Assembly (NCBI GenBank): GCA_008632985.1
Contig: QPGO01000063.1
Location: 186,001 to 250,000, forward strand
Direction of reading: 5' to 3'
Length of the DNA: 64,000 nucleotides
Source: Psammoneis japonica
Lineage: Eukaryota
Shown: in pieces, positions 6,068 to 57,570 of the stretch
How positions within the stretch are numbered: position 1 is the first letter of the stretch
Layout of the letters: every line of letters begins with the position of its first letter
The notes under the pieces: generated by a model
Told to the model about the DNA's origin: nothing
The model's database searches: none
The model's input: the letters and a program-made list of their open reading frames with translations, nothing else
Translations under genes and position numbers: made by a program

Positions 6068-6159
6068 GAAAGGAGAAGAAAAGGAATTGAGTTGCTAAAT
6101 TCATGTAGTGTAGAAACAGTCTGATTCTCCATGAATACCACCGCGTTAGCTTGACACAA

Positions 6160-18050: not shown

Positions 18051-18089
18051 ACAAAACAAAGCAGATTCTTTTGGCAGATCATTCGGTGC

Positions 18090-19061: not shown

Positions 19062-19189
19062 CACTGTGGCCACGGGCCTTGCTGTTGCCACCCGGGGTGC
19101 GGCAGTCGCCGTCCCCGTGCAATGGTCGAAGGCCCCCACCCTCGGTCCGGGGCACATTCCCTGCCCCTCCGACTCCTTTCATCCCGTCA

Positions 19190-34100: not shown

Positions 34101-36361
34101 ACCCACAAACTCACAAGCTACACCTGAAGAACTCACTCCCTGCATGCATGGCATTGTGCTGTGCCATCTGATCCACTCTGTTGTCTCCATCAGGACTTGA
34201 CGTCCCCACACATGCATCCTCCTGCAGAAGATCAACTGCAAGTCAGAGCACTGCCAAGGTCATCTGAATGGCAAAGCAGCAGCTCAAGCAACAGCCACAC
34301 TTTATGACTCAGCACTGCCAGCACTTTGATTTACCTTTGGTGTCAGACCAAACCCAAACCTGTGGAGCGACACGTCTGAAACAGCTTGCAACCTTTCCAA
34401 TGACATCTTGCAATGATGTGATGCCTGGGATCCTTTTTAACTCCACAACTCCACCCAACACAAACTTCCACCTGCAAAGTTTGAAGACTCCAATGTCCCA
34501 TTTGCCACAGGCCAAGAGCTGCAAGTTGAGATCCCTGAAAATGACAGAGGCATTGTTGATGTCTGTGTCAATGACACAGTCGCTGTCATTCCAGACATCA
34601 GCAACAACTTGCCATGGGGAGAAGGCACTGCACTGTTGGCAACACATGCACTTGCAAGACCAGCCCACCCTCAAGAGGACTTTAAACAAGATGATCTAAC
34701 ATCTCTCAAAAATGCAAGCAGGAGGATGCCTTGAAGAGCTCAAGATCATCCTTGGTTGGTTGTTGGATGCCAGACACATGACCATCATGCTTGGAGACTT
34801 TGCAGCAGCCATGCGAGAAAGCTGACACTCCTCCATGTGATTTGACCAACTGGTGGCAGGGAGCATTAGAGCTGCCATGGACAATGTGGCATTGACCTTT
34901 GGGCTTGACAACTGGAAGGACCCAAAACTTGATGAAGATGGTCAATCCTTTTGCCTTTTACTCTGTCAATGCCAAGGATGCAAGAACCAAGATGGATGGA
35001 AAGCAGAAACAACAAAAAGCAATCACTGCCTCCCTCCTCCGAGCCTTGTCACAAAACCAAGCTGCCTGCAAAGACATTGTGATGGGCCAACTGACAACAG
35101 GAGCCTGGCTCTTTGCAGTGCACTCTTGCAAAAACTCTTTGATGAAAGGCGATCGATGCACTGAACTTCTTGTCTTGGAGAATCTCTGCTTCTTCCAAGA
35201 TGACAAGGAACTCTCCCATTCAGACCAACAGCTTGCATTGGCTGACACTGTTTGATCATCTTCAAGCATCAGAAGAACAATGAGTGATGCAACATGGTGA
35301 TGATGTTCAGAACAGGCCACAACATGCTCTGTCCTGTCCAAGTCTGGGCAGCAGTCATGTGTTGCATCTCCTCCTGCCCCGGTGCATCTCCTGACTCCCC
35401 AGCAAGCATGCGCCACATTTGCCAATGGCAAGCTTTGATTCCCATCCTCCTCTGTCATCCTTGCAAAGATGCAAGCAGCAGCAATGGCATTGGGCAAGGA
35501 CAAGTGGGATGCAAGGGACATGAGATTGGAACTCACTGGACTCACTCCAGAGCAGCTGTGGCAATGTGTCTGACTGATGCACCCCCTGTCTGCCATCATC
35601 ATGTTGATTGGCAGATGGTCCTCTGATTCATTTCTTTGCTGCATCCTCAAACAAGTTCAACAATTTAGCACCAATGTTTCAAGCCACATGATCAAGCACC
35701 AGCACTTCTTCACCACCCCAGATCTGGCCCCAAAGACCCAAGAACACATGGACATCATGAAGTCATTGCTGCCGGTGGGAACAATCATGGTCCTCATCAA
35801 CAAGTGTCTCTTGCTCTCTTTGCACAAGTGGCACAGGCTTGAGCATCAACTTGAAATTTTGCTTTTGAGTCATGATGGCGGTGTCAACTGTGGCACTGTT
35901 GGGTCACTGGGGAATCTTCATTTGTGGGAATGAAAATTTTCAATGTGCCAACCTTTTTGAGCCTTGACTTCATGCTGCATTGCTTGGGACTGGAGTCCGC
36001 AACCTGATGTGAGGACTTGGTTCAGCGGGTCATTGTTTGTTGGTCCTGTGAGTCAGAGTGGTTTGTGCACTTGTGCACAAAATTGTTGGACAAGTGGACA
36101 GATGGAACCAGGCTTTGTCATCATTTGGCTGCGATCGCCACACCCAGTCAACTCAATTTCATGTGCCAAAGCCAACTGTCATTCTCTTGATGATGTTAGA
36201 CATCATGCTGTGATGATCTGTGCTTGCATTGCAGCCTCAAAGTTGTTCTAGTCTTTTCAACTGGAATCTTTTGAAAATGACCCATGACGCAAAACACACA
36301 AAACAACTGCGGGCACCTGTGGAATCTGCACGTTTTTGTGCTGAAACTGTGTGTTCACACA

Positions 36362-36469
36362 ATTTGTGCAAAAACAGACTTGACTCCTGTCAGATCAGGT
36401 GCATTTTTGCAAATGTGTTGAAGAAAAATTTGCCTGATCAGACAGGAGTCAAGTCCATTTTTTCGCAAA
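36362..36469. repeat. Near-perfect hairpin, probably the core of a small palindromic MITE (~36318-36583)
   Basis: GACTTGACTCCTGTCAGATCAGG ... CCTGATCAGACAGGAGTCAAGTC. Confidence 0.8.
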
Positions 36470-36794
36470 GTTGAAGTTCATCAAGGAAGGACAGATAGAC
36501 AGACAGACAGACTTTGTGTCAATTGTCTTGGTGCGGTGCTGTTCTGCACAATTTCTGTGCAACAACTCCACAGTGCAAAAGATTGCCATTGAAACTCCCC
36601 AGACCTGCCCTGTGTCAACTGCAGCACTGTCAGGTCACTGGGAAATCTTCATTTGCAGGAATGAAAATTTCCCCTGCCAACATTTGAGTCTTGACAACTT
36701 CATGCTGCGGTGCTCAGGACTGGAGTCCATGACCTGATGTGAGGACTTGGTTTGGCAGGTCATCATGCTTTTTTCTGTGTTCATTCATGTTTCC

Positions 36795-37050
36795 CTGTCA
36801 GGGGCAGGACAGACCATTTTCCTTTCCTTGGGTTGAGCGTGGACCACGCAAGCCATTGAAAAAATCAGAGAGCAAGATTGGCAAGCAACGAGACTCCCTT
36901 CTCTGTCTTCTGCCTTGCCTTGAAGAGACACAAATCTCACCCACTGCAATCTTGTCCCCTCACCTCCACCAGCACCAGCCTGCTGTGGCCCTGGCCTGGG
37001 AATCATCTGAGTGGATGACAGTGAAGTCCAGCATGTGTGCTGCTCTTTCT
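36795..37050 (+). repeat. Dispersed repeat, copy 2 (see 10520-10890)
   Basis: Alignment by eye. Confidence 0.85.
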
Positions 37051-37631
37051 TTTTTGTGGAGGACAAATGTCTTTCTCTGGATTTGATCCATCTGGAGAAG
37101 TGTGCCTCTCCAAGCTGAGATGACCTGGTTTGGTCTTTTTGACTGTGGCTGGTCAAACTTTGGTTTTTTCACTTTCTCATTTTTTGGCTTTGTTGGAACA
37201 GGAACATTGATCACACTGTGACTGGATCATGTTGCCCCAGCTTGGAAAAGGAGCAGGAACATGGACCACTGTGACTGGATCACACTCCAGCTTGGAAAAG
37301 GTTTTTCTTTTTTGCTCTTCTCTCTCCCATCATGTGGGGCTTCTTTGCTTCCAGTGTCAATGACGAGTTTGTTGATTTGGCCTGTCAGCTAAAAGCTGAT
37401 GTGATTTTGCCATTCTCATCAAGTTCTCCCTTGTTGTCCTCTTCTCAGCTCAGGCTCACCCTCCATGGGTGGAGCTTCAGGGTGGTCATGAGGGCTTAAA
37501 TTCCACAATGGTGGGGTTGAATGTTGGCTTGGGCTGTGGCGGTCATGGTCATGGTCATGGTCATTCTCAGGCAGACACAGACCAGGTGGGCTGAGTTGGG
37601 GCAGGTTGTGACTCCCCATCAGGTCATTGAA

Positions 37632-38592
37632 GATGTGTTCCAGCCCTGGCAGGTGGGACTCTGTGTGACATTGTGCCTGCAGAATTCTGTGTGCAAGCTC
37701 CGCAGTGCAAGAACTCAACTGACAAACATGTTGGTCTTTGTTGTTGAATGAACAACCAAGTTTGTGGTGGAATTGTGCCTGTCCGTGCTCAAAGTTTTTG
37801 AACATCAATCTGCCCACACCATTCTTAAGATGTTCAATTGAGAATGACACAGAAGAAAAAATGTCAAAAGTTGTTGAGTGGGTGACAGAAGTTGAAGAGA
37901 GGCAAAAATGGGTGGAAGAAAACAACAACTCCTTGCTCTGCTGTCTAAACAGCAGATGAGTCTCCATGCAGAGACCATTGCAGGAGCCAAAAGACATGTG
38001 TTGTGATGTTGGTGCTGCTGTTGTTGTTCTTGCAAGCCCCATGTGGCTTGAGTGCAAACTGCACTCTGCACAATGTGCAGGACTGAGAGCACTCACAACT
38101 GTGCATGACAAACTGAAATCTTGTTCAAATCCTGTCACTCCCCAGTTTGCTTGAGGAGTCCACAGAGACAGACTCAAGATCAGATTGGCTAAAGGTCTTG
38201 GGATTGAAGCTCCAAAATGTGAGGGGACAAAGGAGGTTCCGGATCTGGGAGCAACCCCAGTGCTTGCTGAGAACATTGGCAGCATTGCAAGAGTCTTGAA
38301 TGAAGTGAGACTTGAGGAAACTGGAGGCAATTGCCTCATGCACACAATGGAATGAGAGGGCAGTGTGTTGTTTGTGTAAGTTGGATTGTGGGACAGTGGC
38401 ACTGTCCACAACCAACTTGTTGTCCCCAAACATGTGTCATGTGCCCAACAACTGCACTGCAAAATGACACAAAATTCCACCAAAGTCCTCATGCAGAAAT
38501 GCATGTGTGAGATGCAACATGTGGCATGATCCAAAAAACTGTTGATGTCACAGCTCAGCAGTGCAAGGTCCCACCTGGAGCTAGAGCTCATC
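37632..38592 (+). mobile_element. MITE family A, copy 5, containing a Copia fragment
   Basis: GATGTGTTCCAG..AGGTGGGAC ... GTCCCACCTGGAGCTAGAGCTCATC; perfect TSD TGAA. Confidence 0.88.
37883..38439 (-). mobile_element. Copia (CoDi-like) 3' fragment: RNase H end, PPT and 255-bp LTR
   Basis: MFGDNKLVVDSATVPQSNLHKQHTALSFHCVHEAIA..NAANVLSKHWG; PPT GGGGAG (38143-38138) abuts LTR TGACA...TGTCA (38137-37883). Confidence 0.85.
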
Positions 38593-38599
38593 TGAAGAC

Positions 38600-41500
38600 C
38601 CATTGGGAGGGGCTGAGACCACACATGACCAAGTCCATGACCTTTCCACTTGTGTGTTTTGGACCTGGAGAAAGAGGAGCAACCTGGGGTGCTTTCATGA
38701 TGGAGGAGGAAGGTGCATCTCCTTTGTCATTGCACGTGCACCTTGTTGCCACATCATCTGGCTAGAAGGCACCAATTTGTTGTGCTGCCTTGGCATCAAG
38801 GGTGGTGAGGCCACTGTCTGTTTTAAAAAGGCAGGTGAGTGCAATGTTGAGCACAAGGGAGGGGTGCTGCTGTCAGGGTCAGATGGCATGGTGTGTGGTG
38901 ATCCTCCAGGCTGTGGATGTGGGGTTCTGTCAGCTGACATTGGATTGTGGATTCTTGACGGCAGACGTCTTGGTGAAATGGGAGTCCACGACTGACACCC
39001 TGGCCAGTTGGCATCGGTTTTGAGCCGCATCAGTGGAGAGATTGTTCCAACAAAGAGGAGTTTGGTGCCTCCCTGAATGATTGCAAGAAAGTGGCTGAGT
39101 TCAAAACTCCAGGGCACAAGAAGGAGTCTGGCTTGCCTCCTCCTGGGTGGAGCGTTTGGCCAGTTTAGTCCCTGTCAGAAGATGATCACTTCAACTCCAG
39201 CTCAGTTTTTGGCCACTGACAAGAGCCCATCAGCACTTGCATGGGTTGTCCAGACAGTGGAAGATGGCTTGCATGAACCAGGCACAGTGGTCACAGAAGT
39301 GGGCAACAAGTCCTGCATCAATGCGAAGTCCATGGATGGAATGGTCCAGTGGCTCGGCCACAAGTTGGGCCAATTGGATGCTGCTTTGGGCTCCCCTCTC
39401 CTGGGGTTTGACCCAATTCTAGAGAGGCTCCTGCTGTTTGGGGCACAATGGTGAATGTGGCATCTGGTTGTCATGGTCCACCAAACCTGGACATTCCATC
39501 AGGGGAATGAAAATTCAAACTTGACAGACCAAGGTGAGCCAGACAAACAATTCTAACTGGCTTCTTGCTGCCTTTAATGTCAGGATCCAGTTGTTGCAAG
39601 ACCAATGTGGAACCTTTGCAACTCACACAGATTTGGATGCTTTGAAGAGCGGGGTGCTCCAGGTGTGCACCCAGTTGGCCACCAGACTGAGGGGATTGGA
39701 ATCAAGGGGTTCATTCTTTGCCCCAGGAATTGTGGCTCTGGGTAGAATGGTGCCCAGCAGGTTGTCAGTTGATGCTCAACTTTCTTGTCTGGACCACAGT
39801 GCCAGTGAGCTCTAATCTGTTGGCAAGTCTGACAAGGAGGCTGTCAAGTTCTTGGGAGTGGGAGTGTCAGCCTCCTGCAGTCAGTGCCAAGCCTGGGTGG
39901 TTCAGCACTTCCCTTCCCAGGCACATGGGTGCTTGACAGATGTTGTGCTGTCATTGGACAGGATTGAGGAGATTGAACAACCTGTTGCACTCACCACTTC
40001 CTGTCTCAGAGGCAAAGCACAAGAGCACAAACATCAATGTGGCAGAGGATGCTGGGACTTTGGCCAGGCTTCAATGTCAAATGCCTCAACTGCTCAACTC
40101 TGGGTCACAGCTGAGTTGGTTCAGATGCTTGGCCTTCACCCATCCTGTCTGGATAAGATCCCAATGCATGATTGTTGGTCATCTGGGAACATGGGCACCA
40201 AGCATTTTGTTGATGACAACATCATTTTGCAACGGAAACTGACATTGTGGAGATTGACCAACAGATCCCATCTGAGACCTTTGAGAGTCAAGTCATGCAT
40301 GATGCATTGTCTGAGCAGGTGGCCTTCTTGTTGGCACATCCAGCACATTGACTCAACCCATGATTCCCTGACAAAGTTGAGCAAGTTTTCAGACAAACAA
40401 GCTTGGTCTCTTGCCATGAAGCCAGTTCACTGAATCTTCAAGGACATCCACAATGCCCAGTCTAGGGCATTTGCATCAATTTTGGGTGATGACCCCCTGA
40501 CACCATGTGCAGCAAAATTTTTGGGCTGCTTTTTGAACCCAGGATGTTGTGGAGGAATGTGCCACCTTGAGATTTGCTGATCACCCATCAATGGCCTCAG
40601 AGTGTGTCAAGGTTTTGGCAACCAATTCTGGGTTCAAGATGTTGACTGCCCTTCAGACTGCTGTCTGCACACTCTCACTGAGAAGGCTGAGAATGCAAGC
40701 TTGGAAGTCAAGTTGGCCCAAGCAAGAGGTCGTGACTCAGCCCATGTGGAGACCAGCAAGCTGTGTGATGAGCTCAAGGAGGCCACTGAGTGTCCCAGGC
40801 ATTAGAAACTGAGAAAAGAAGGTCAGGGTGGTGGTTGGAGTGCAACAGCAAGTCGAGCTTGGATGCAGGTGCACCACATGTTGGCCCTTCTCACCCAAGG
40901 CATGTCATTGGGGGTCACAAACCCTTTTCCTTCCAAGGGTCCTGTCTGATTCTTGCATCTGCCCCCTGGGGTGGCGTTTTGCCCTGAGACCTCCTGAGTG
41001 GCCTCTGGTGTGCTTGTTTGCTTGGTGACAAGACATTTGACAGCCCTTGGAGCAAACCCATGCTGCAGGCTTTTGAGTTGCAACCTGCCAATGTCCACTG
41101 CTTCTCATGGACTTTGGTCTGTCAAGTGGCCTCCCAAGTTTAGCAAGTGATGGTTTTGGGTTCACCCCAGTTTCTTGAATCAGCAGCACAGATTCTCCCA
41201 TCCAGCCCCATGCCAATGGCCCCAGTGGGGATGGTTGTGTGTTGCAACCCACAGGGGTTGAGCCATGTGCCACATTGTTCTGTCTTGCATGAAGTGGCAG
41301 TGGGTGGCGTCATGTCCTTTTTGACAACTCTTTTCTGGGATCAGATCCCTTTCCCATCATGGGGTGGCAGTTTGCAGTGGTGGTCTGTTGGCCATGTTGT
41401 TGATCATAAAATGGTGGGTGCTCCTGCAGACCTGGCCTCTGCAGGCTGCAGCTGCTTCAAGAAGGATCATTTTCATCCAGGGTCTTTGACCCAACCCATT

Positions 41501-44500
41501 GTGTGCCAGCCCTTCAGGTCTGCAACAGGGTGGGTCTCCCATTCTCTTTCCCCAGATGAAAATTTTCAAGACCTGGGAATTTGATCTGCATTTCCAAACT
41601 GCACAAACATTGGACACATCATGTGCCACAAGAAGAGCATCTCAATGCCAACACCACTCAACCCACTCACAATTCCTGTGGAAGCATGTGTTTCTAGTTT
41701 CCAGGCAGGCACTTTGCCCCTGTGTCTGGCAGGATCACAGGGAGGATGTTGGGAGTGTTTTGTGTCAAAAGAGGAGCACTTGCCTTCAGCCACTTGGCTC
41801 CCAGACCTGCAGCAGTGTCTCCTGCACTCATGGATTGATGTCTCTCTGATCATGGCAAAGGTGGCAAAGGAAGACAAGGCTGCACCACCATTTGACAGAG
41901 ATCCCTGCATCCACTGGGAATGACACAATCCACTCACACACAGTCCCACACACCAGGAGAATGGTGAGCCCATGAAGAATGGGAGCCCTGTTCTGCCAGT
42001 GAAGAGTGCAGTGGTGTGTTGCCACAGCTGTCTGCAACATGTGACGGGTGGTGTCGGCAGGTCAATGCATCCAAATGTTGGTGGAACGGGATGTGCACAA
42101 GGTTTTTGGTGAGGGTGTCTCTGCAGTTTGCAGCAGCATTGATTCTGTCCAGTTGCACTAAATCTTTTTCCACCCAATCCTGCAGTGCAAAATGGCAGAT
42201 GTCAATGTGCTGAGTTTGTCAAGTGGGTTGACTTGCATTCACCATCATCTGAAGTGCATCAATGTCTTCACAAATGAGGGTGGCTTGGGTTTGAGGAACT
42301 GGCAGTTTATCCAGGATGGAGCAAAGGCACAGAGCCATGTCACCAGTGTTGAATGCAGCAACAAACTTGGCCTCAGACAAAGAAGTTAACACAGTGGGTT
42401 GCACCCCAGTTTTCCACATGGTGGGACACTTTGGACACTGTGGTGGCAGCAGTGATTTGTGTGTCATGTTCTTGGAGAGTCTTGTTGCACATGATGAACT
42501 GTGCATTGACCCCATTGAACTGGTCTCTTTGAGGGTTTCTGCAAGATCATCCTGAGCAACAAGGTGTGACACAAGTGGGTCAGGCTGTGTGAGTGAAGTG
42601 TTGGAGGTCACCATGTTCTCACAGTCATCAAGAACACCCATCATGGCATTTGCCACAGTGAGGCCATTCCAAATGGTTTGTTCAGTGTCAGTTCTTCCAT
42701 CTGAGTCTGGATGTCTCCTTTGATTTGACTTTGAAAATTCTTTCATTGCAAACCCACAACATTGCTGAGAGTGCAGATGGCATTCAATGATTTTGTTTTG
42801 ATGCAGGCAACTTTGTCTGTTGCCGTGCTGTCTAACTTGTGGAGTTCTTCTTGGGTGGCTGTTTGTTTTAAGCCATTGAAGGATGCTGGCTTCTGCTGCT
42901 TCAACAGTGTTCATGATGGTGGACAGGTGGGGAGTGATTTTTTTGTCCAGAGTCTTGAGAGAAAAGTCTTGTCATGAGCAGCTGTCACCAAATTAGCTGC
43001 ATCACCAGCTGTGGCAAGTGCTTCATCTTTTGCAGCTTCCAATTGGGTCTCAATGTCCCTGCAGAATGCAGCCAGAGCACAATCCATCATGATGTTGTCA
43101 AGATCAGAGTGGTTCTGGTTGGTGACAGTGCAAATTGTGTTCAAATCATGGCACAGTTGGTTGACCTTGTCTGCAGACTTGTCCAGTGCTTCCTTGTGAT
43201 CTTCCAACTGTTCAATGGCCTTGCTCAGTTGTGTGGTGCATTGAGAAATCAAATCTGCCAATTGAGAGGAAGTGCAGGGGGAAAGCAGGGTGGGAGTCAA
43301 GGCATGAGTGGAGGCTGTGGTGTGGCATGCACAGGTGGTGATGGCAGAGGATGGTCGTCATTGCCAGTGGCCTCAACAGCACATCCACTGCAGTTGGAGA
43401 GGGAGGGGATGGCAGAGCATTGTGGACATTGTCCAGTGCCAATGTGGCAGTGATGGTGGGTTGAGACTCTGAAATTGTTGGGGGCAGCAGTGGCAGGTGG
43501 GGATGGATTTTCTGTTGCCATGCAGGTGACAGAGCAGCCTGCAGGGATGATGGCTTTTCACATCAGGATGTTGCTGTCTTGGAGCAGGTGCTGTTGGCAG
43601 GAGCCATGGTTTGTTGTGTTTTGTGCAAGCTGGAGGATGCTGTGCTGCATGCAAAGGGCAACACAAATTGGAACATTCCACAGTCAGCCTGCAATGATCT
43701 GCTGGTGGCACATCAAATTGACACAGAATCTTGTGAGAATGGCAGTGAACAAAGCATCACTGTTGTTGTCAACAGAGCTGCAAAGTTCACATGTCAAACA
43801 CTCTCTCTGCCAGTGCTGACAAGAACAGGACCATGTTGTTTTGTTGCTGCTCATGTCGGCAGAGGGGCCCTGCTTGTGCTTGTGCATGAGCATTGCTCAC
43901 AACCGGCTGACAGAGATCCCTGCTGCATCTGCTGGGAATCACACAATCCACCAAGACCATTTCATCTGTGGGACAAGTGGGCAGCTTTGTTGTTTCCTTC
44001 TTTGGGAAATGTCTTGCCGGCACTGAGAAATTTGGCCCTGCAATGGTGGCAACAGCAAACTGCTTCCACCTTTCTGTTGCATTTGTGGTGTGAGCATGGC
44101 CAATTTTGGCTGTCTTCCCTTGCTGTCCAGTGCTGGCAGCATGAGGATGCTCAAGGGCATCTTCAAGGGGGGGTTCACCATTCTTCTCTCCCTTTGCTGC
44201 TCTTGGATGCCACACTCAGAGCCAATGTTCTCTCTTACACCCATGGGAGCTCTTGGTGGCCTTGGGACACCAGGGCTTGTCTCTTTTTTTCTGGCAATGG
44301 CCTGTTGAGGAGCAAAGATGCTGAGCACGAGACAGGGTCCCATTTTTGTGAAAGGGGAGCTCCCTTGGTGTTGTTGGCATCAATGGATCCATGGCAGTGC
44401 AGCTAAGATTTGAAGGATGGCTGAAAAAATCCAGCAGGTGTGACATCATTGGTGCATCAAATGGGGTGACATGGAGAGTCTTGCCAACTGGTTCTGGTTC

Positions 44501-45100
44501 CTGAAGATGGTTGGGGTTAAGGGAAAGCTCATTGAAATCATTGAAGACATTTGCATGGTGCACAATGGGAGTTTTATCTGGCCTCAATGATGTGCTGTGG
44601 GCCCCTTCCTTTTGCTTGCCTGTGTCAGCTTCAGTTTTGGAGTTCATGACAGCTTCAAAAAATTCCATGGACCTTGATTTGAGGGACATGTTCCCAATTT
44701 TTTTCATGGACCCTCTTGAGCAACTCATCTGCCTGAGGGTTTTGGAAGCTGAGTGCAGCTTCATGTTGCACCTTGTTCATGTCTTGGGCAGGTGTGTGAT
44801 TGCACAAGGCACTGATGGCATGTCCCAAGGAGTTCTTTCAGAGGGAGTTGTGAGCAGAGCCAGGATGCTTTTGTTCACACCCTTCACTTGGGGGGGGGCA
44901 CTGCCCAAGCCCCAAGGCTGTTCGATTGGGTCTGCTCATGGGTGGGATCACCAACCCTGGAGACAATTGCCCCTTTCAACTGGCTCCAAAAGGGCCATGA
45001 CATTGCAAGCCAGGAGCATCCAGAGCATGAAGTCATTGAAATGCCTCTTTTCAAGTCTGGGACGTGGACCCCAGTGGCAGCAAGGGCAGCAGGCATCTGG
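38600..45100 (+). mobile_element. Decayed YR-type retrotransposon 3 (ORF1 plus internally deleted RT/RNase H), interrupted at ~41.9-43.8 kb
   Basis: ORF1 EECATLRFADHPSMASECVKVLATNSG; RT start SGLNDVLWAPSFCLP..DLDLRDMF fused to RNase H end LHLVHVLGRCVIAQGTDGMSQG. The YR domain itself was not seen. Confidence 0.7.
41920..43800 (-). mobile_element. Internally deleted Copia relic (gag-like region plus RNase H at ~42420-42020)
   Basis: KTGVQPTVLTSLSEAKFVAA..MALCLCSILDKL..TLICED..HIDICHFALQDWVEKDLVQL..NCRDTLTKNL. Confidence 0.75.
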
Positions 45101-48100
45101 GGATGACATTGACATCACAAATGGATGTGGAAAAAGAAGGAGAGATTGGGCACAGCAAGGCCTGCACACAAGATGCACCAGCACTGCGCTGATGTTGATC
45201 TCCTTCTTCCTTCCTTCCTGTGCTGTGCCAAGGCCATGTGATTTGAGTTGGTTGAAGGAAATGATGTGGATCCTGACAAACTTGTGAACCTCACAGTCAA
45301 CAAGCAACAAAAAGATGGTCAAGATGGAGGAATGGAGCACACCATCCCTCAAGGAAGAGAAGGGCAGAGCAAGGAGATGAACCCAACTGTCGCTGGGGAG
45401 TCCAGGCATTGTGGTCTGCATGATGTCATTTGCTGCATGGTTTGCAACTGCATTTGTGGCTGTGCCACTGTTGCCACCACCATGCAATTTGTGTGGACAG
45501 CTGCAACCACCACACCTGGATCTCCTCCATCAAAGTCCATGAATTGTCAAGGGAAGTGATTGCAAACACTGTTCCAAATAAATTCGTCATTGGGGCTTGT
45601 GTGTTGCTGCTGACAATTGTCATTTTCTGTCTCATTGTTTTCTTTGGCAAGGACCCCAACAATCCCAGTCTGGACTGCATTCCACAATCAAAGCATTGTT
45701 GGAGGAAGTGCAGAAGATTGATGTGGCAGGCCCAGTCAAGCATGCAATGGACTGGAAAACACATTGGTTGATTGGTTGAAAGCAAGATCAATTGACTGTC
45801 CACAGCCAAGCAATCCCAAAAAGGGAGAATCAGGTGAGCCCAAAGCCATCAAGCAAAATCAACAACAAACACCTCAAAGAAGGCACTCAACTGGCATGAT
45901 GGCAGCACTGGTGATCCCAGCAGCAGTGTGCATGACAGCCCAGAATGATGCTCTCAAGCAAGAAAACATGAATCAACTTGACACGGACTCGGGACCTGCA
46001 GGCATGGACAACTGAAGCACGGGACACTTGTCCAGCACAGCAACAGACTTTGCAAGCAAGCTTGTTCCAAGCAAGCAAGCCACAAAAGGATTTGAGGGGT
46101 CAAGAACAATGGGAGTTGTGATGGGCACATTGATCTGGTGATGGTGTGATGACAATGAGACTGCTCACTTGTTCAAGATCCCAAACTTGCACTGCGTGCC
46201 TGATGGCAAGAAGGTCTGTCTGTTCAAGTCCCCAACACTGGAAAAAGACACAAAAGGATTGCAAGCCAATTGAAGGTGCAGGGGAAAGCACAGGCTCCAA
46301 ACAATGCACTTTGCACTGGAGCCAAAAGTGAAACAAACTCACTGTTCCCTTGAGCCCAGAAAACAGTGTGGCAACATTCAACCTTGCTCCCAGTTGCCAG
46401 AAGTTTGAGGCCTTCTGTGCCAAATGTGGAGTCATCAATGCCACTGAAGACAAAAATCATGTCAAAGGAAACAAAGCAAACATTGTGAGCGATGACAAGG
46501 AAGAAAATGAGGAACAAGAGTCCAATGATTCAGGGTTGGTTGAATGCACCTGGACCTTGAATTTGATCAAGACTGTCTTGTGTGGCCATGCCAGGCAAGA
46601 CAAGCACACCTCAGGGTTGAAGGACAACATTCCAGTTGCCGCTCCATTTAATTTGGATGGTCCACCTGAGGACATGAGTGGAACTGGTCTGCCCCAAATC
46701 ACAAGAGATGAGGAGGATTGGCAGAGAAAAAATGCATCGGCAGAATGGTTGAGACTTCACCAAAAATGTGGACACATCTGATTCCAAAAAAAGGCAAGCA
46801 ATGGCAGAGCAGCTCAGGGAGTCATTCCAAAGCATCTGGCAAAATGCAATGTTTCTGCATGCTCCTCATGCATGTTTGCAAAAGCAACCAAATGGAAGTG
46901 GTGACACTGCAACAAGAAAGTGCGCGATTCACAGAAGCCAACATGACTGGGTCAAGTGGTGTCAGTGGATCAAATGGTGTCACCAACTCTGGGGCTGATT
47001 GTGCATGTGGCAGGGTTTCTAACAACCAAGCTGTGACACAAGTGTGCAACAGCATGTGTCATTCAATGTTCTTGCTTCAGCTGTGTTCACCTGCAAAAGA
47101 CAGCAAGCATGGAAGAGATGTTAGAAGGAAAGAAAGCTTTTGAACTTGTGGCAAGAAATTACAGAGTCAAGGTGCTAACCTGCCATGTGGATGACGGGAC
47201 ATTCAAGGTGAATCAATGGGTGCAAGCATGTCATGACCAAGGGGAAGGTCTCACATTTGCAGGTGTTGATGCACACCATGTAAATGGAGTCACCAAGCAC
47301 CACACACACGAACTGCAAGAACATGCATGAAGCATGCTCACACATGCAAAGGATGATGGCCTTCAAGCATCACCACCAAGAACTTGTGGCCATGCCATGT
47401 CCAAATGGCAAACAATGCAATCAATGAAACACCCAGCTTCCAAAACCCCAAATGCCAGACTCTGACTCAAATGCACATGCAAACAGATGTCTCCAGCAAT
47501 TCCAAGCACTGGACCCCATTTGGATGCCCAGCACATGTGCCAGATGACCAGCTCCAAACAAACCGCCCATTTCACAAGTGGAGGCAACACTCAAGGATCA
47601 GACTTGGGGACAAGCCTGGTGCATGGCAGGAATGTCACCTTGGTGCCAAACAGAGCAACAGTGCATGCAATTCCCCAGTTCCATGTGCAGTGTGACCCCA
47701 GTTTCCATGTGACAAAACAGGATGACCAGATTTGTGAGTCAGAAGGAGATCACCAAAACATCCAACGGCAAGAACAAGATGCCACTTGTGCCCAAACCTG
47801 CTGAGAAGTGGAGTGTTCTCAGCAAGAGAGAGCACCCTCCATCAGAGGGAGCATCAAGGAAGAGGAGGTTCAATGTGATGAACCATTTGCAAAATCTCAA
47901 ACAAAAAACCAGGGTCACCCAAAGCCAACTGGCAAGGTGATGATGCTGCAGCAGCCAGATCACCACTGGCACAGCCAATCCAACAGGCAGAATCTCTAAA
48001 AGGACCTCCACAGCAGGAGAGGAGCAAGTCTGATCTGTCCAGTGTGCCAAGGACACTGGGGGTGACAACAAGATCAGGGTGACACAGAGCCAACCAGTTG

Positions 48101-48341
48101 AGCAGCTGGCACTGGCAATGACAGCCAAACTCAGTGCCCGTGCCAAGGGGGTGTTGAGGGAGAGATGTCTTCACTGGCAGTCATGTCTCCATGCAACAAA
48201 TTATCCATCACAGATGACCCTCTTCCAGCATGCAAAGCTTGAACAGACCCCAATGTCATGTGCGTGCACCAAGCAATGAAACAACAAGATCACAAGGAAT
48301 TTGTCAAGGCAACGTGCAAAGAGGTCAAGGGCCAAATGAAG

Positions 48342-49346
48342 AACAGAAACTTCACCACAGTTCCAAGATCAACATTGACTGACAAAAGGAAGACACTTCC
48401 AGCTGTGTGGCACCCAGTCTGCTGTTCCACAGAGGGTGGGTTATAGAAACAAATGATCTTCAGCCACACCAGTGGTGCCACAATCAAAAACACTGAACAC
48501 TCAACTGCTTTTGTTTTTCTCTCTCCCACCATTCTTCAGCTGGTCATGTGGTGAGTCAGTTTCCAACTGATGTGCACATGCATCTGACAGTCAATGGGGC
48601 AGATTCTTCACTGCACCTGTTCCATGCAGACCTTGGTGGCCACCAGTCTGCTGTTCCACAGTCACCTGTGGGTGGAGCAGAGAATGCCAGGCTGAGTGTG
48701 ATGGGCTGGGACAGTTTGCCAGTTGTTCCAACCCTTGTTGCATCCCAGGCCAACAAAAGTCCACAGCATCTGCAAGGACTTGATTGGGGTGGGACGGGCA
48801 AAGCCTGCTGAAAGTTGCCCTGCTGCAGGCACTTGGTTCAGGATTGGAACAGAAACTTACCACAGTTCCAAGATCAACATTGACTCACAAAAGAAAGACA
48901 CTTCCAGCTGTGTGGCACTTGGTCTGCTGTTCCACAGAGGGTGGGTTGCAAAACCAAGAAATGATTTCAACTGCAGCAGTGGCGCCACAACAAAAACAAT
49001 GAACACTCAACTGCTTTTGTTTTTCTCTCTCATGCCATTCTTTAGCTGGCCATGTGGTGAGTCAGTCTCCAACTGACACGCACATGCATCTGACAGTTGA
49101 CGGCAAATTCTTCACTGCACCTGTTCTATGTAGACCTTGGTGGCCACCAGTCTGCTGTTCCACAGTCCCCTCTGGGTGCAGCAGAGAATGCCAGGCTGAG
49201 TGTGATGGGCTGGGACAGTTTGCCAGTTGTTCCAATCCTTGCATCCCAGGCCAACAAAAGCCCACAGCATCTGCAAGGAGTTGATTGGGGTGGGACAAGC
49301 AAAGCCTGCTGGGAGTTGCCCTGCCACAGGCACTTGGTTCAGGATT
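48342..49346 (+). repeat. ~505-bp tandem duplication (48342-48847 / 48848-49346) spanning the Copia/YR-element junction
   Basis: Both copies run AACAGAAACTT..CCACAGTTCCAAGATCAACATTGAC ... CACTTGGTTCAGGATTGG. Confidence 0.92.
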
Positions 49347-52300
49347 GGAGTCTGGGGTGGGTGTGGCAGAACCTGGGTTGAGAGAAAATTCCCCATGCAT
49401 GAGCACAGCAGAGGCAAAGGTGTGCATGAGGGGGGGTGCTTGGGCATGGAGGCACCTGAGCAATTTGTCAGAGTGCCAGCAACCAACCACGCAGATGACA
49501 CTGGTGTCAATGCAAGTGCAGAGCAAGGCCATGGTGCCACCAGCCTGGAGACTGTGGGCCGAGATGTCACTGGGGACAAACCACATGTGTGGTTGGTGGC
49601 AATGGCAGGTGAGTAAAGCACAGAGAGGGGTCCCTGGTGGTGACATCAGCCCACTGGCTGTTGATGAAAACAGAGTGCAATGGCATGTCCGGCGGGGCGT
49701 TGTGGAGTCGCAAGTGCTCCATGCAGTGACAAAGTGCCCCATTGGGGCAAACTGTTGGGTCTGGCACATGGTGGTGACTGACCTTTTTGCCAGGGACAGC
49801 ACATTCTTCTGCTTTGTGTGGGCAAGTGTGGCAAAAGTGGCAGTGTGCAGGTGTTTGAGAGGCGCTGTCAAGGTGCACAGCAGGTGCTGCAGCGCCTGAC
49901 AGAAGGAGACATTTCAAAGTCAAAATGGGTCTTGTCACAAGCCTGGTGCCAAAGCCGCATGCTCACCAGGATGACGGAGATGGAAGAAACCTTTCTCTGG
50001 CATGTCAGCAACTGCTTGCTCCATGGCCAAGCATGTTGAGGTGGCAATGGCTTGCTGGTGCCAAACTGGTGTGAGTGGCACTGGCTTGACTCATGCGGGC
50101 CTGCGTTGCACCAACCTTTTGATTGCTGTGAGAGGTGTGACAACTTGAGTTGCATGGGTCAGTCAGGTGGTGATCTTTGGCCCCCACACTGGCCATTGTC
50201 TGACCCACCACTCAGAGGACATCCTCCACTGTACAAGATCAGACAGAGCCACCGCTGGGTGCAATGCATCCTTTGCAACACCAAACCATGACTTCCACAA
50301 GGAACTGGGTGGGATCCTCAATGTCAAGGAGGAGGGGGTCAACCCCCAAGGAGTTGCAAAATTCTTGCCAAAGGTCCCAGGCAGAGTCACAGCATGCAGC
50401 ACATTGAGGAACAACACCGGTGTGGGCTGCTGCTTGTGCAGTGCTGAGATCACAAAGGAAAACATCGCAGTCTCAGGTGGCAGAGCCACCATGGCCACGT
50501 CTGGGGACATTGATGGTTAAAATGAAGCAGAGACAAGGGGTCAGCCAGGTGCCAAAAGTGTGATGCATTGTTGGTCATGCCATTGGAAGGGCCCAGAATG
50601 CAGCCATGGGCAGCAAGGTGTCAAAAGTGGAGCTGGTGCAGAGCAAGAGGCACCATGGGCCGTGGGCAAGCGGCTGGGTCATGCATGGTTGCGGAGCCAT
50701 GGCGCAAGCATGACAAGGATGGGTGTTGTCCCTGACAGTGCCCACGGTGTGCACTCATGCATGTCAACATTCTGTGCAAGCACTTCTTGGTGGGAGATGA
50801 TGCCCATGTGCTCAAGATTGCTGTTGGTGCGATCACCGTGTGGGTTTTCTCCTGGGACACAAGCTGATCCTGCATGTCCTTTGGAAATTTCTCATGCCAC
50901 ACTGCGGGATCCCTGTTTGGGGTGAACCAGACCCTGCCCATGCCAGGACCAGCTGCATCCATGGAGCCTGCAATGGCAAGCTGGTTGGGCACATTTTTGG
51001 CACGCCGAGTTGGGCGGGCAATCACGTCATGCATGAGAGTCTCAAGATCATCAAGTTGGGCTTGCATGGATGCATTGATGTGCACATGCAAGTGGTTGCT
51101 TCAGAAAAAACTGGTCTGCAACAAACCAAAGAGACTGTGCCCCCCTGGGATTGCTGTGATCATGCTGCGCAGCTCTCTGAGTGCTTTGTGCCAAGTCTTG
51201 ACAGAGACACAGCAGACGTGATGGAGATTCTCAAAGATCTCCAGGAGTTGCACCACTTGGTGTGGTGGGAGCATGATGGTCTGGTGAAGGGTGTCAATCA
51301 CCCAACCAAGGACTGTTGTGATGGTGCTCTGTGCTGCGTCCCCCCTGTCAAAGCTTCTTGACCAAGATGGGCTCCTTGTGGCACCATGCATCAGCAGGAG
51401 CAAGCAAGCTAAAGATCTTGTTGACAGCTTGCATGAGGACGTGCCATGCCGTGTGGCACCACCAATGTGAGCCCTGCACAAGGCCAACAAAATCATCAAC
51501 ACAGACATCCATGCAGTTGACGGGCTTGTGCAGCTGCACATGTGTGATGTGTGGAGGTGGTGGCAAGAAATCATCATGGCATTGCAGCTGCTGTGTAGCC
51601 CCACAATCATGAGGAGGTGCTGCAGTCTCAGAATTGTGCTCCAGCCAGTGTGGTCATCTTTGACAGGCCTGGGGTGCAGTGGTGTGTTGCTTGTCAACCA
51701 GATCAGCAGTGTTGGTCTCAGTGGCTGGGCAGAAGGTTGGCAGAAACTCCACCCAGCACATTGGCAGGCTGAGTGGGATTGCTGCAAGTGGTGATCCCAC
51801 CTGGATTGGGGACAAGTGCTGCCAGTGCAAGAGCATTGTCAGGTCAAAGTTGGGTGTGACAAAACCCATTGAAGATGTCAATCTTGTTGATGTGGATGGA
51901 CCATGCCTGGGGTTTGCATGATGGATGCGATGCAAAGGTGTTGCAAGGCCTGGTCAAACTGCATGGCCTCTGGTGGTGCCAATCTAATGGTGTCCTTGTT
52001 GACACCCCAGAAGCTGAGGTTGACAACAAGCTGAAGGCATTGTTTGTGCTGGGGGACATTGTCCAAGGGTGAGAAGCAGAGTCCCAACAGATCCTTGACT
52101 GGCTCATGCAGCAGAACTTGCCAAAAACTGTTGTCACAGAAATTGGCCATTTTGCCCAGACAAATTCTCTGTGCTCATGTGTGGACTTGTGGGGACCCCA
52201 CACCGCTCACATGTCAAGGAGGGTGGCAGACCAGGGATCACTCACTGTGCTGGGGACCTGATGTGGTGGAGCTGGTTGAGGTGCGGTGTGACTTGTGGTG

Positions 52301-54224
52301 GAATGCAGCAGATGGCCTTGGAGACATGGGATTGTCCTCAGGACCTGCACGCAAGCTGGGCACAAGTGTGCAACTGCTTGAAATGCTGGATGTTCTCTAG
52401 AATGTGCTTGCCAAAACAACCATTCCCCAAAGGTCCAAAGGCCATTGCTTTGGTTGATCTGTGTGGCACTTTCTTCCATGGTGGTGGTGACATGGGTTTG
52501 TCTGTAACTGGAATGGCTGCCAATCCACAGATTCCCACATCACTGGTGCTGCCTCTTCCAATGTGGAGTGCAAGGTGCAAGTTGGACAGAGCCAAGTCTT
52601 TGGTTTTGGTGAATGCAGCAGCAAACATTCCAAGACAGTGCTTGATTGATGCCACCCTCCCCATCAGAGAGCCGCCACCCCATGCGCATTCAGGCAGTCA
52701 TGCACATGTTTGGTCTTTGCTGTGGTGAGCACACTGCCATGCGTGGAGCTCTGCATGCACTGAGGAAATGCACAGGTCCCACGCAGATGCCAAGAAAGAC
52801 AGATCTCCATAACCCCATTGTCCATGAGAGGCAAGGTGACAGCCAACCTGTTGGTGAACTTGCACAGAGTGCCCCTGTGAACCACCCAGCAGCGCTGCAA
52901 CTTGGTCTGTGGCTTGAGCAGATCCTGTGGAGGCAGAGTGGATTTTGGTGAGGCACACAGGAAGCAGACAGAAACTGGTGGCAGAAGAGTTGCATGTCTT
53001 TCCACATGCATGACAGAGACAAGCCCCTTGAGGTCTGGTGGCATGGTGGTGGCTCCCTGGCATGCAGTGCTTGGATGACAGCCAGACATGGACTCTCCTT
53101 TCTCAGCACTGGCCAGCATGTGCCACATCTTAAGAAGGACAGCTTCAGAGGCAACTTTGCACATGCAGTGGATGCTTGAGACAGTCTGCAGGAATTTCTG
53201 TGTCAGCATCTTGGGCAGTGGCATTGGTGTGCTGTTGAGCAAACTTGCCCTGCATGATGGCCTGAAGTGTCTGCATGAGCATGAGGTTGGCAGTTCCTGC
53301 ACAATTTGCCAGAGGCAGCATGTCTTTGGTGATCCATGACCAGATGTGGCAGTTGAGTGTGCCATCTGCCACAGGTGCTGCTGGTGTGTCCATGGACAAT
53401 GCTGGTGGTTTGGGGTCACCACCGGCTGCTCCAACTGGATGGCATGTGGCAGCTGTGCATGCCCAGTTGAGCATGCAGCAGTGCACACCATGGCCATTGA
53501 AGATGATGGCTTGAAATGTGTTGGTGCAGAACTCTTGGGGAGTGAAGTGCTGCCAGGCAAGTGCGCGGGAAGCACAAGCCAGTGGAATGGGTGCAGTGAA
53601 GTGGGGGCAGACTTCCTTGGGCCAATGTTGGCAGCACCGGCTCCCCAAGGGCCAATGCAGTCCATGCTCACAGCAGCAATCCACTGGTTGTCTGTGTCAC
53701 CCAGCACAGGTGCTCAAGCCACCTGTGTGTGGGTGAAGGCATTGGCCAGCCATGCAACCAGAGTGACCTGGTTCCCCGGACCAATGTTGGATGCAAATGT
53801 GTGTGCTGTGTTGTCCCAGGCAGTTGTGAGACCCAGCATCGGGGCATGGCAGGTGGTGTGATGGAGCACCCAGACCTGCAGGGGATCAGAGCTGGCAAGG
53901 TGGACAAAGACCTTGGGAACATTGTTGTCTGTGGCAAGTGCCCCATCTCATGGTGCAGCTGGGGCAGCGGTGCTCTGAGCTGAAAAAGGAGCTGAGCAAG
54001 CTTGGCAGTCTCCTTGGAGGGCATCAGGCAGTGTGCCATGCAAGGCCTCACAGGTGACATGATGGGGTGCAGCCATGATGGTGGAGACACAACACTCTCT
54101 CACAAAAACAAATTGTCTTTGACCACAGCAGTTGTGCTGCAATCAAAAACAATGAACATTCAACTGCTTTTGTTTCTCTCTCTCCTGTTCTTCAGCCAGC
54201 CACATGGTGAGTCAGTTTCCAACT

Positions 54225-54261
<37 letters not shown>

Positions 54262-54342
54262 ACCCAACTGTCAATGGCAGATTCTTCACTGCACCTGACT
54301 GTCAATGGCAAATTCTGTGCTGCACCTGTTCCACGCAGACCT
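48918..54342 (-). mobile_element. Decayed Ngaro-like YR retrotransposon 4 with split direct repeats
   Basis: A repeat ~54120-54342 = ~48965-49137; short B repeat GTCTGCTGTTCCACAG at ~48922 and ~49150. RT KIDIFNGF, PLSLPMCWVE, DVCVDDFVG, TVLGWVIDT; RH MDAAGPGMG; YR ISAHSLQAGGTMALL..VGCWHSDKLLRCLH. Confidence 0.9.
54227..54260. repeat. (TG)n microsatellite
   Basis: About 17 TG units inside the A1 repeat. Confidence 0.95.
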
Positions 54343-56774
54343 CTGTGGCAGATGAAATCAAAGCGGGGCATCCCGACCCATGCTGTCAAGAAGGAAATGG
54401 AAGGCAAGATTGAACACAGACAGATCAAGGATGAGAGAAGGGATCTGCTGCAGCAAAACACATGCCCCAGTGGCATCCCGGAACTCAACACACATGCCAC
54501 TCACCTCAGCAGCAGTGCAATTGGCACACTGAGCAACTGGATCATGCTTTGGCTTTCCCACAGGCTCCAGCAGAGTGCAAGATTTACATGCAAATGCTGA
54601 AAGGATTTGAAATCAACAAAGGAAATTGGATTTTGTGCTGCACCTCAATCGGACTGACAAGCCAGGTGAGCATGAAACAAGCACCTGGTCTCAACAAGTT
54701 GACAAAAGAGCCAAGTTTCACACAGTCCAAGGTTGATGAGTGTGCATTCCATCGAGGCAAGATGATGCACTCACTGCACTCTGATGACAGCTTGCCAGCA
54801 GGACCTGACAAGAAGAAGACAGATCAAATCTACAAGGACCCAAAGGCTGCTGAGCTGAACATTGCAGCAGAGGGAGACATGGAAGATTTCCTTGGTGTCA
54901 ACAATGAAAAGAAAAGTGATGGTGCAGCACATCTTGCACAGCCACACCTCATTGATCAAATGCCAAATGACCTGAAGCTTGATGGTGATGACGCAAAGCC
55001 CAAGGATGCTCCAGCCTCATCTTCAAAATTGTCATCCAGGCACTCTGACTCAGAACCCTTTGATGGACACTGCAATTGCAGATCCATTGTCAGCAAACAA
55101 AACCATCTAGAGAAGGCCACAAGGAGCAACATTGCTTGTGTCATGCACCAGTGTGCACGATTTGCAGCAAATCCTGGGGTGGAACATGGTCAAGCACTCA
55201 AATGGTTTGGACAACATCTCAAAGATGCAAGAGATGACAAAGGCACCATGCTGAAACTTCAAGAAGACAAAGACTTGAAAGCACACATCAATGCCAACTT
55301 CAGCGGCACCAACTGGGGCCCTGAAGAGGCAGCTGCTGATCATGACACTGCCATGGTTCATCAAGACATGGACAAATTGTCATGTGTGCAAGATGTCCAA
55401 TCCTTTGGAAATCTTGGCTGCAAACAGAGATTGCATTGGGTTCAACCAAGAGTGAGCACACCAGCTCATCATGTGTGTTGAGAAGTGCAATGCCTCTTGT
55501 GGAGCTGCTCAAGGAAATGAAGCACAGCAGCTTCCCAGTGCACACCTGCAAGCCAACAGTTCATTGTCGCGTGTTTGAGGACAACAACAGAGCTCTGGAA
55601 ACTGCAAAAATCTGTGGGTGCTGTCCAAGAACCAAACACCTGAATGCAAAGCTGCACCACTTCAGAGACTGTGTGTCCAGCAGGGGAGAAACTTCCGCCC
55701 ATCCTGTCGACACCAAGGAGCAACTCACCAATTGTCTTGCAAAGCCAGTGGGTGCAAACACCCTGCTCTTGTTGAGTCCACCGGTGATGGGGTTGCAGGG
55801 CTTGAACAAAGTCCGCTGGTGTTTGGCTGAAGCATGTTCAGAGGGCAATTGCCCAATGTCCCAAATGAGAGGGAGTGTCAAACAAACAACCTCACACTCG
55901 AGTTTGCATCATGTGAATGCATCCAGTCATGAAGACATTGCAAACATTGAGCAATGACCCCTGTTGATTGATCTCATTGACTGCAATTCAAAAGGAGCTT
56001 AAAATGTTCAGAATTCCTCCATTGAGTGTTGAAACTGATCTGCCCAATGCTCTGTGCAAATGCAGAATTGCTCTGCCACACTCACAATTTGTGAACTTGC
56101 TTCGCCACAACAGCCGAGCTCTTTGTCAGCCCAAATGCCTTGGTGAGTGCCAATGGTTGGCAGCTGGGCACTTTGGCAGAAGACCAGACTGAGTTGAAAA
56201 TTGCAAAAGTGTTGGTCAGCACACTGGCAAGTCCTTTGTGTCTGAGTCATTGGAGCCATCTGCGGTGCGCCAATCATGGCTCTGCTGCAGCGCAATCAAC
56301 TTTGCAAAGACTTGGAAAAAAGACAGGGTTCAAGTTTTGTGAAGAGTGTTTGCAGAGCCACGTGTGCACTCAACATTTGATTGGCTGCAGTGGCAGTGGC
56401 AAGTGAGCACATTTGTGTGTTTGTGGCTTGCAGGGCGACAACACTGAGAGCCCCGAAGCAAGCGGCAGTGACGCCAAGAGTCCTTGGCAGACTGGCGAGC
56501 TGCAAGACCATGATGAGCCCAATTTTGAGCTAAAAAGTGATGAGTTGGTGGCAGGAGCAAAGTGGCTTGTGGCTGAGAGGAGAGTGGGCAGTGCAGCGGC
56601 TGTTGGTTGTTGTGTTTGTCGATTTCTCTTTTTTTGGCATGCAACGACTGTTGATGGCTGACGTCAAAGTTTGTGGTGCGGATTTGTCACGGAAACAAAT
56701 CCATCCATTGTGTGGAATTGGCGGGTGGCGAAAACCCTCATTTCTTCAATTCCGTCGATTCTTCTCATTCCCTG

Positions 56775-57570
56775 CGCATCCGACACGATGAATGTGCCGA
56801 TGACGTTACATACAACCGAAGGCTTGGTGCAACACACAGCCACTGATAAGAGTCAATGTGTCACGGCGATGTGTTACAGCCTTTAAATGTCACAAATTGC
56901 GTGACAAAAATAACCTTTTGTCTGCATGCATGCTGCATTATGAATTCATAGCGGAGTGGTTCATCTCGCAACCATTAGGCAGGAGGCCAGGGGTTCGAAA
57001 CCCGAGTGGGAGTTGTCTGCAGCAACGTTGATCACTGTCGAACGCGTAAAACTCTGTGCAGTTCTGTATGTTCCTTCGTACGTACCCACACTGTTCCGCC
57101 AAAACCGTGCAGTGTCAGTACACGTTAGTAAAGAGCCGTATGGACGCGTGATACATGGGGAGGAGTGCAATATACAGCTACTAATAAGAGTTTTAATGTA
57201 TCACGGCGACGTGTTACAGCCTTTAAATGTCACAAAGGGCGTGACAAAAATAACCTTTTGTCTGCATGCATACTGCATTGGTGACATTCGATGTGAAGCT
57301 GTAGCCTGCCCGCCTGCCGGTGCAATGTGTGCGTGCATCCGACACGAATGAATGTTCGATGACACGTCATCCCGAAGGCTGGGTGAGTGACGGACATTGA
57401 AAGCTGTACAGTACTGTAGCCCATGCCTGCCGGGCAATGTGCATCCGACACATGTGAATGTCCGATGACGCGTCATCCCGAAGGCTTGGTGACATTGAAA
57501 GCTGCTGCTGTATCCTACTCAATGTATATGTGATTCTATCCGACACGTATGAATGTTCCGATGACACGTG
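56775..57570 (+). repeat. Degenerate ~105-bp tandem repeat, about 4 units, first unit interrupted by the TRIM
   Basis: ATCCGACAC..TGAATGT..CGATGAC core at ~56778, ~57337, ~57443, ~57538, followed by CCGAAGGCT in the first three units. Confidence 0.8.
56828..57277 (+). mobile_element. TRIM (miniature LTR element) carrying a tRNA-like Pol III promoter
   Basis: LTRs 56828-56937 and 57166-57277 (TGCA...TGCA); PPT GGGGAGGAG at 57157-57165; 4-bp TSD TTGG; empty site GGCTTGGTGACATT at ~57483; internal A box TAGCGGAGTGG (56949) and B box GGTTCGAAACC (56992). Confidence 0.85.

Follow-up and report, generated by a model that had tools for sequence, protein, structure and literature searches.

The window, by which we mean the whole stretch of 64,000 nucleotides that was analysed, belongs to a diatom genome and contains a transposon-derived block of ~46 kb that is poor in both TpA and CpG and lies beside gene-bearing DNA. 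A short LTR element straddles the right edge of this block, with its inner terminal repeat facing the block. Composition was determined as observed over expected dinucleotide counts and was also profiled in 2-kb and 250-base bins. From the block outwards, the composition of the successive zones is as follows (observed/expected, ratio in brackets where given):

10700..56806, no strand: TA-poor, CpG-poor transposon-derived block (~46 kb); TA 175/2873, CG 580/2890, CA 5190/2903, TG 5225/2860
20001-56249: core of the block; TA 137/2242 (0.06), CG 310/2289 (0.14), CA 4143/2293, TG 4134/2238
56250..56827: edge zone of 578 bases, TA already lost, CpG near normal; TA 3/35.0 (0.09), CG 25/35.9 (0.70), CA 47/27.8, TG 71/45.2
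56828-56937: inner repeat of the element; TA 4/9.0 (0.44), CG 3/5.0 (0.60), CA 14/7.7, TG 14/5.8
56938-57165: internal part of the element; TA 12/13.5 (0.89), CG 16/14.8 (1.08), CA 17/12.8, TG 17/15.7
57166-57277: outer repeat of the element; TA 11/10.6 (1.04), CG 4/4.1 (0.98), CA 10/7.3, TG 9/6.0

To the right of the element (57278-59000) the counts are TA 68/109.8, CA 114/102.5 and TG 149/111.2, and the gene-bearing DNA beside the block has TA ratios of 0.50 (1-6000) and 0.57 (59001-64000) with CG ratios of 0.9-1.07. On the right side of the block, the TA edge lies ~550 bases further out than the CG edge; on the left side, the two edges coincide within ~40 bases, the last TA being at 10690 and dense CG extending up to 10731. 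A BLAST search with 55950-56827, which includes the edge zone, returned the self-match only.

Several other features of the window were recorded. The segment abutting the left edge of the block (10501-10750) is CpG-dense, with 38 CpG in 250 bases. Further to the left, a separate TA-poor patch of ~1.3 kb (6301-7587) has only 3 TpA amid otherwise normal DNA, and the bin 6001-8000 has a TA ratio of 0.23 and a CG ratio of 0.34. Inside the TA-free block, a unit of ~505 bases is present as two tandem copies at 48354-49363 and as a partial third copy ~5.15 kb downstream (54106-54349), with many differences between the copies at CA/TG/TA sites. Tandem repeats of 106 and ~248 bases occupy 57278-58235, to the right of the element, and a TA-rich tract at ~57500-57760 holds 37 TpA in 250 bases. 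CAF-1 subunit A is also found in the window, with homologues in Nitzschia, Cylindrotheca, Skeletonema, Seminavis and a Bacillariaceae MAG, besides three transcriptome or gene-model entries (best identity 59% among the matches listed).

The inserted element

The element is 450 bases long (56828-57277) and consists of a pair of terminal repeats, 89% alike and each bounded by TG..CA, on either side of a core of 228 bases. Its parts, all given on the forward strand, are:

56824..56827, +: left copy of the target-site duplication, TTGG (4 bases), read from the sequence; a contig of the set X1, described below, joins 56823 to 57278 and skips 454 bases
56828..56937, +: inner (5') terminal repeat, 110 bases, TG..CA, 4 TpA, 3 CpG
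56938..57165, +: internal region, 228 bases, non-coding, 12 TpA kept; TA 12/13.5, CG 16/14.8
56939..56950, +: perfect palindrome of 12 bases at the position of a primer-binding site
56949..57002, +: A-box and B-box pair of the tRNA-gene type, with starts 43 bases apart
57157..57165, +: polypurine tract GGGGAGGAG, 9 purines, adjoining the 3' repeat, read from the sequence
57166..57277, +: outer (3') terminal repeat, 112 bases, TG..CA, 11 TpA, 4 CpG
57278..57281, +: right copy of the target-site duplication, TTGG, from the sequence and the X1 contigs
57480..57504, +: paralogous insertion site without the element, in the next-but-one unit of the 106-base tandem repeat (repeat families D2 and D3)

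The polypurine tract lies against the right repeat, and the left repeat is therefore the 5' one. The element splits one unit of the 106-base tandem repeat, and its two flanks together rebuild that unit. No ORF of at least 40 aa was found inside the element. To judge from these sequence features, it is a TRIM-like non-autonomous LTR insertion, as the first-pass annotation had proposed: the TG..CA repeats, the TTGG duplication, the polypurine tract, the lack of coding capacity and the existence of many copies whose flanks differ all agree with that call. The primer-site position, however, is taken by the 12-base palindrome, apparently in place of a tRNA-type site. This palindrome is the sole match in the window to the TA-tolerant pattern, and at least one match arose in 12 of 100 shuffles. 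Its two TpA differ in the majority of the family copies (56940 A>G, 56949 T>C), and the resulting variant is again a perfect palindrome. In addition, a 10-base inverted repeat (57147-57156 and 57196-57205) links the end of the core to the start of the outer repeat.

The A-box and B-box pair is an exact match to the tRNA-gene-type consensus; the window contains it once, and 300 shuffles did not produce it. With ARAGORN, the window yielded 0 tRNA genes; relaxing the threshold for 56701-57400 did not change this, and lowering it still further brought up only poor candidates, the first of them well downstream of the pair. Rfam gave nothing at the gathering score and no tRNA match up to E = 10. After these negative results, a tRNA identity of the core was dropped, and the A/B-box pair alone stands. 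A further A box was matched at 10971, close to where the block begins on the left, but it was set aside as a chance match, as it lacks a following B box and a window of this kind should give 0.9 such matches. A second sequence that exactly fits the B box, at 18685-18695, lies in a GC-rich stretch within the block and may be a remnant of tRNA-related sequence.

The element has in common with plant TRIMs the short TG..CA repeats, a short non-coding core, a polypurine tract, a target duplication and a high copy number. Cassandra is a TRIM with a Pol III promoter, and the element shares with it an apparent, putative Pol III promoter; however, the promoter-like motif of the element is of the tRNA type and lies in the core, whereas that of Cassandra is of the 5S type and lies in the repeats. 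Unlike plant TRIMs and Cassandra, the element has a 12-base palindrome, apparently in place of a tRNA-complementary primer site, and its target duplication is 4 bases long. No paper on diatom TRIM elements was found in the literature searched (subscription journals outside its coverage).

Contigs were used as a further source of information on this locus. The set X1 was fitted to a 3-kb stretch at 80% likeness, which gave 1073 fitted contigs (contigs, not reads), and it may be the source sample of the window itself and hence not independent. One X1 contig (depth 40.7) joins 56823 to 57278 and represents an exact empty site, with a single TTGG and six letters that fit either side. At 57555-57778, two X1 contigs are present, one identical to the window (depth 24.2) and one with 16 differences and 12 gaps (depth 25.6), each with roughly half of the 61.2 found for the left flank, and these are two haplotypes. 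The empty-site contig and the half-depth haplotypes together indicate that the insertion is probably hemizygous, or at least not fixed.

The repeat pair and the edge of TpA loss

The two repeats were presumably identical at insertion, and the differences between them are few and of one main kind. They consist of four TA/CA, three TA/TG and one CG/TG differences, an adjacent TT/GG pair and one 2-base gap. At all seven TA differences, the TA stands on the outer repeat and CA or TG on the inner one (4 C/T and 3 G/A differences); at the CpG difference, the inner repeat reads TG and the outer CG. Counted along the repeat, the seven sites are at positions 6, 8, 14, 17/18, 29, 34/35 and 106/107. The alignment thus reproduces exactly what the first-pass annotation had read by hand, including the totals of 4 against 11 TpA and 3 against 4 CpG. 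Transitions that destroy a TA account for 7 of the 10 substitutions. When 10 random substitutions were placed on the outer repeat, with transitions twice as likely as transversions, seven or more of this kind occurred in 25 of 1,000,000 runs (P = 2.5e-5). The 7:0 direction of the TA differences is also unlikely by chance (sign test, p = 0.016).

It had further been claimed that TA loss is faster than CpG decay and partly uncoupled from it. Within the pair alone, the loss of 7 of 11 TpA against 1 of 4 CpG is not significant (Fisher, p = 0.28), but the claim is supported by the adjoining edge zone (56250-56827; TA 3/35.0, CG 25/35.9).

Sequence context gives a finer view of where the loss ends. 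Among the TpA that survive in the block (n=175), TTAA is enriched 6.25x and CTAA/TTAG 4.1x; ATAT accounts for 0 of the 175, against 44 of 515 TpA in normal DNA, and ATAC/GTAT is at 0.13x. These survivor contexts are the context preference of the mutator, although the survivors alone do not show which flank matters. The inner repeat follows the same pattern: TpA without a TAA side were lost in 5 of 5 cases and those with one in 2 of 6, so that all 4 kept TpA have a TAA side, a context that also survives in the block. The 215 bases that follow the inner repeat keep 7 TpA of the sensitive kind, i.e. without a TAA side. Since sensitive TpA are lost in the inner repeat and kept immediately beyond it, the mutated field ends between 56932 and 56949. 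A stop within ~340 bp had been proposed; the stop exists, but that figure was too generous.

Two additional patterns were considered and rejected. Within the inner repeat, the loss depends only weakly on distance (Mann-Whitney p = 0.08), and sequence context accounts equally well for the four survivors. A flank rule that would decide between the exits CA and TG was given up as well, since four family sites contradict what the inner repeat and the reverse transcriptase frame described below (9 His : 2 Cys) agree on. Nor does the process stop absolutely at this edge: in the flanks that are single-copy (56362-58028), all 10 listed differences between the window and X1 are transitions at TA or CG steps, of which six set TA against CA/TG (3 in each direction) and four involve CG.

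Direction of change and the family copies

A pair of repeats cannot by itself tell loss from gain, and the first-pass annotation had accordingly rested the direction on the tyrosine evidence. This evidence comes from a reading frame that lies within the block, ~1.3 kb from the element:

54435..55481, +: dead copia-type reverse transcriptase frame; Pfam RVT_2, E = 2.9e-6, 27.5 bits (curated cut-off 31.6)

The frame has 166 homologues at E <= 1e-5 and was aligned with the first 60 of 120 listed homologues. In the 14 columns where the consensus is Tyr, it has 9 His (CAY), 2 Cys (TGY), 1 Trp, 1 Ser and a single remaining Tyr, whereas other consensus residues are kept (Trp 4/4, Cys 3/3, Phe 8/9). 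His or Cys has thus replaced Tyr in 11 of the 14 conserved columns, which means that a local process removes TpA, turning TA into CA or TG. Loss of TpA is thus the direction of change in the block, and the tyrosine argument is upheld. For the repeat pair we infer the same direction, the seven TA differences being losses in the inner repeat. The only non-TA difference that can be polarised agrees with this: every one of the 7 contigs that cover 56897-8 reads GG there, so that the TT of the inner repeat is derived as well. The 2-base gap is common to only 906 of 3056 depth units.

Within the window, BLAST with the element revealed no second copy, but only chance matches of up to 26 bases, and scans of metagenome contigs with two patterns for more family copies gave no matches. 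In X1, by comparison, the summed contig depth is 21,101-142,999 in the bins of the element against 40.7-70.7 in the adjoining bins, and loose contig ends with unlike continuations occur exactly at 56828 and 57277 (agreement 0.46). This suggests a family of hundreds to thousands of copies, the summed depth itself not being a copy number.

The first-pass annotation had proposed to polarise the pair with the consensus of other family copies. Twelve transitions are listed inside the element, and all of them fall at a TpA of the window copy where other copies read CA or TG; the comparison rests on the rows listed, 125 further rows of the X1 table lying outside it. The CA/TG share of depth is 35% at one of the 12 sites and 69-87% at the other eleven. 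The family majority is thus TA-poor at 12 of 12 listed TpA sites and cannot polarise the pair as a whole. Three of the seven sites that differ between the repeats are informative:

57173: outer TA, inner CA, family majority CA (as in the inner repeat)
57179/80: outer TA, inner CA, family majority TG
57199/200: outer TA, inner TG, family majority CA

The majority therefore equals the inner repeat at 57173, but at the other two of the three informative sites the family left TA by the exit that the inner repeat had not used. There, the inner repeat and the majority are each one step from TA and two steps from one another, so that TA is the simplest shared origin. We read the TA-poor family majority as a product of the same mutator, and the presence of one dominant exit per site (mostly 69-87%) suggests that part of it was inherited from source copies that were already mutated.

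Mechanism, alternatives and known systems

We consider it very probable that the inner repeat records a TpA hypermutation that acted after insertion, was guided by position, spread from the block and ended between 56932 and 56949. In this model, the TRIM-like element of 450 bases entered the 106-base tandem repeat at a point directly next to the transposon block. A regional mutator in the block would turn TpA into CpA or TpG, i.e. A:T into G:C, on either strand, and a slower decay of CpG to TpG/CpA would act on the same DNA. After the insertion, the mutated field would have crossed the flank and run the full length of the inner repeat, where 7 of 11 TpA were lost, and would have ended at the junction of that repeat with the internal part, leaving the internal part and the outer repeat intact. 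The spared part belongs to the same high-copy family, which argues for targeting by position near a marked block and not by repeat homology alone. The guide would be a chromatin or methylation domain, and the chemistry, by analogy with the system described at the end of this section, would be a deamination of adenines that stand in a T-A context, whichever strand carries them. Against the model it must be said that no outgroup shows TA as the original state of the family.

A further point against it is that the mutated field and the repeat end at one and the same place, which would also fit gene conversion or a recombination between cDNA and a solo repeat. The inner repeat would then have a separate history, either converted from a mutated copy or left as an old solo repeat, already mutated when a new cDNA recombined with it, and the pair would be no record of the mutations that followed one insertion. 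The mutated tract does stop no more than 17 bases from the repeat end, and the family offers very many mutated donor copies. Yet the inner repeat is unlike both the majority and the outer repeat at 2 of the 3 informative sites, and its TT at 56897-8 is present in none of the 7 contigs there. Moreover, TTGG stands at both ends of the element and the flanks rebuild one 106-base unit, the empty-site contig lacks both repeats, and the left flank outside the element is TA-depleted as well (3/35.0), so that we regard a separate history as distinctly improbable. We judge it very unlikely that the direction is reversed, with both repeats TA-poor at insertion and the outer one gaining 7 TpA by C-to-T changes at CpA/TpG in the manner of RIP. 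The pair alone could be read in this way, and the majority is TA-poor and shares the inner state at 57173; but 57278-59000 bears no RIP mark (TA 68/109.8, CA 114/102.5, TG 149/111.2), the change of Tyr to His/Cys reveals local TA loss, the inner repeat and the majority are two steps apart at 57179/80 and 57199/200, by way of TA or CG, and the polarised non-TA change also sits on the inner repeat.

Editing of the RNA or single-stranded cDNA before or during integration would mean that the repeats were never identical in the genome. APOBEC3 deaminases edit the cDNA of retroviruses, which gives a precedent for deaminases acting on retroelement cDNA, and the two repeats are completed at different steps of reverse transcription. 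Against this, the 4 T-to-C and 3 A-to-G changes, as counted on the + strand, bring the two exits to within 30 bases of each other, which means that neither strand was spared; in addition, the flank at 56250-56827 is equally depleted although it is not part of the element, and the repeat that was hit is the one that faces the block; such editing appears extremely unlikely. The chance of an assembly or base-calling artefact is negligible in our view. X1, as possible source sample of the window, does not count as independent here, but X2, a sediment metagenome from another study, contributes two contigs of 151 bases with 0 differences to the window in TA-free DNA (55839-55989 and 56037-56187), and the codon-level change of Tyr to His/Cys is unlike a calling error.

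Post-insertion hypermutation guided by position may be taken one step further. tRNA genes act as heterochromatin barriers in yeasts, and the mutator might follow a spreading chromatin state, and not sequence homology, acting quickly enough to convert two thirds of a repeat's TpA before the insertion has ceased to be hemizygous; here it would be halted by a TFIIIC-binding A/B-box pair that serves as a heterochromatin barrier. We hold this extension to be rather unlikely. If it were true, a miniature retrotransposon would set the border of a hypermutated domain, and gene-less elements would be the one class of repeats that the defence cannot kill.

For the more general model, the repeat pair constitutes a before-and-after control, as its members were presumably identical at insertion, and the locus measures how sharply the process ends, to less than 20 bases. 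Because part of a very high-copy repeat is spared and the end that faces the block is hit, position would count and homology alone would be insufficient. The probable hemizygosity of the insertion suggests that the process is recent or ongoing.

Methylated transposons undergo CpG decay by deamination of 5-methylcytosine. The block shares with this process its low CpG (CG 580/2890) with an excess of CA/TG, and 1 of the 10 substitutions of the pair is CG/TG; however, CpG decay cannot account for the TA loss, and the right CpG edge lies ~550 bases further in than the TA edge. RIP, known from Neurospora and other ascomycetes, changes CpA to TpA, enriches TpA and is triggered by duplication. RIP and the process at this locus have in common a regional transition hypermutation that kills transposons and is able to leak into neighbouring DNA, but the chemistry and the dinucleotide shift are the opposite ones, as the block loses TpA and has an excess of CpA/TpG. 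Whereas RIP responds to duplication, here most of a high-copy element is untouched and its block-facing end is hit. With the internal part and the outer repeat spared in spite of the high copy number, homology would not be a sufficient trigger, unlike in RIP, yet most other copies of the family are TA-poor.

To our knowledge, directed hypermutation of foreign DNA from A:T to G:C is in print once only, for a rhizarian alga in which neither the enzyme nor the rule of targeting is known. TpA loss in diatom repeats was the subject of no paper found in the literature searched (subscription journals outside its coverage). A preprint on the alga in question, the chlorarachniophyte Bigelowiella natans, describes how integrated NCLDV and virophage DNA is hypermutated at TpA (Mettrop et al., bioRxiv 10.64898/2026.01.13.699255). 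In mutation-accumulation lines, A->G or T->C changes made up 230 of the 231 mutations that arose in a pair of integrated viral regions; they occurred at TpA, gave TpG or CpA, amounted to ~6e-7 per site per generation and were confined to some lines, and adenine deamination in a T-A context was proposed (10.64898/2026.01.13.699255). The block of the window has in common with what is described there the change of TpA to TpG/CpA, its regional extent, its occurrence on integrated foreign DNA and the excess of CpA and TpG. With regard to foreign DNA, the block holds the dead copia reverse transcriptase, and the TA ratios outside it are 0.50 (1-6000) and 0.57 (59001-64000). RT and DDE domains are enriched among the TpA-poor genes of B. 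natans, a likeness to our transposon-derived block. Besides the host, a diatom in our case, the two differ in degree, with a Rho(TpA) of 0.45 in the viral region of B. natans against 0.06 in the block core. The block is also unlike B. natans in its strong CpG loss and in having an edge that is resolved to less than 20 bases inside a high-copy element. The signature of the block is that of the B. natans process, here in a diatom and far more complete.
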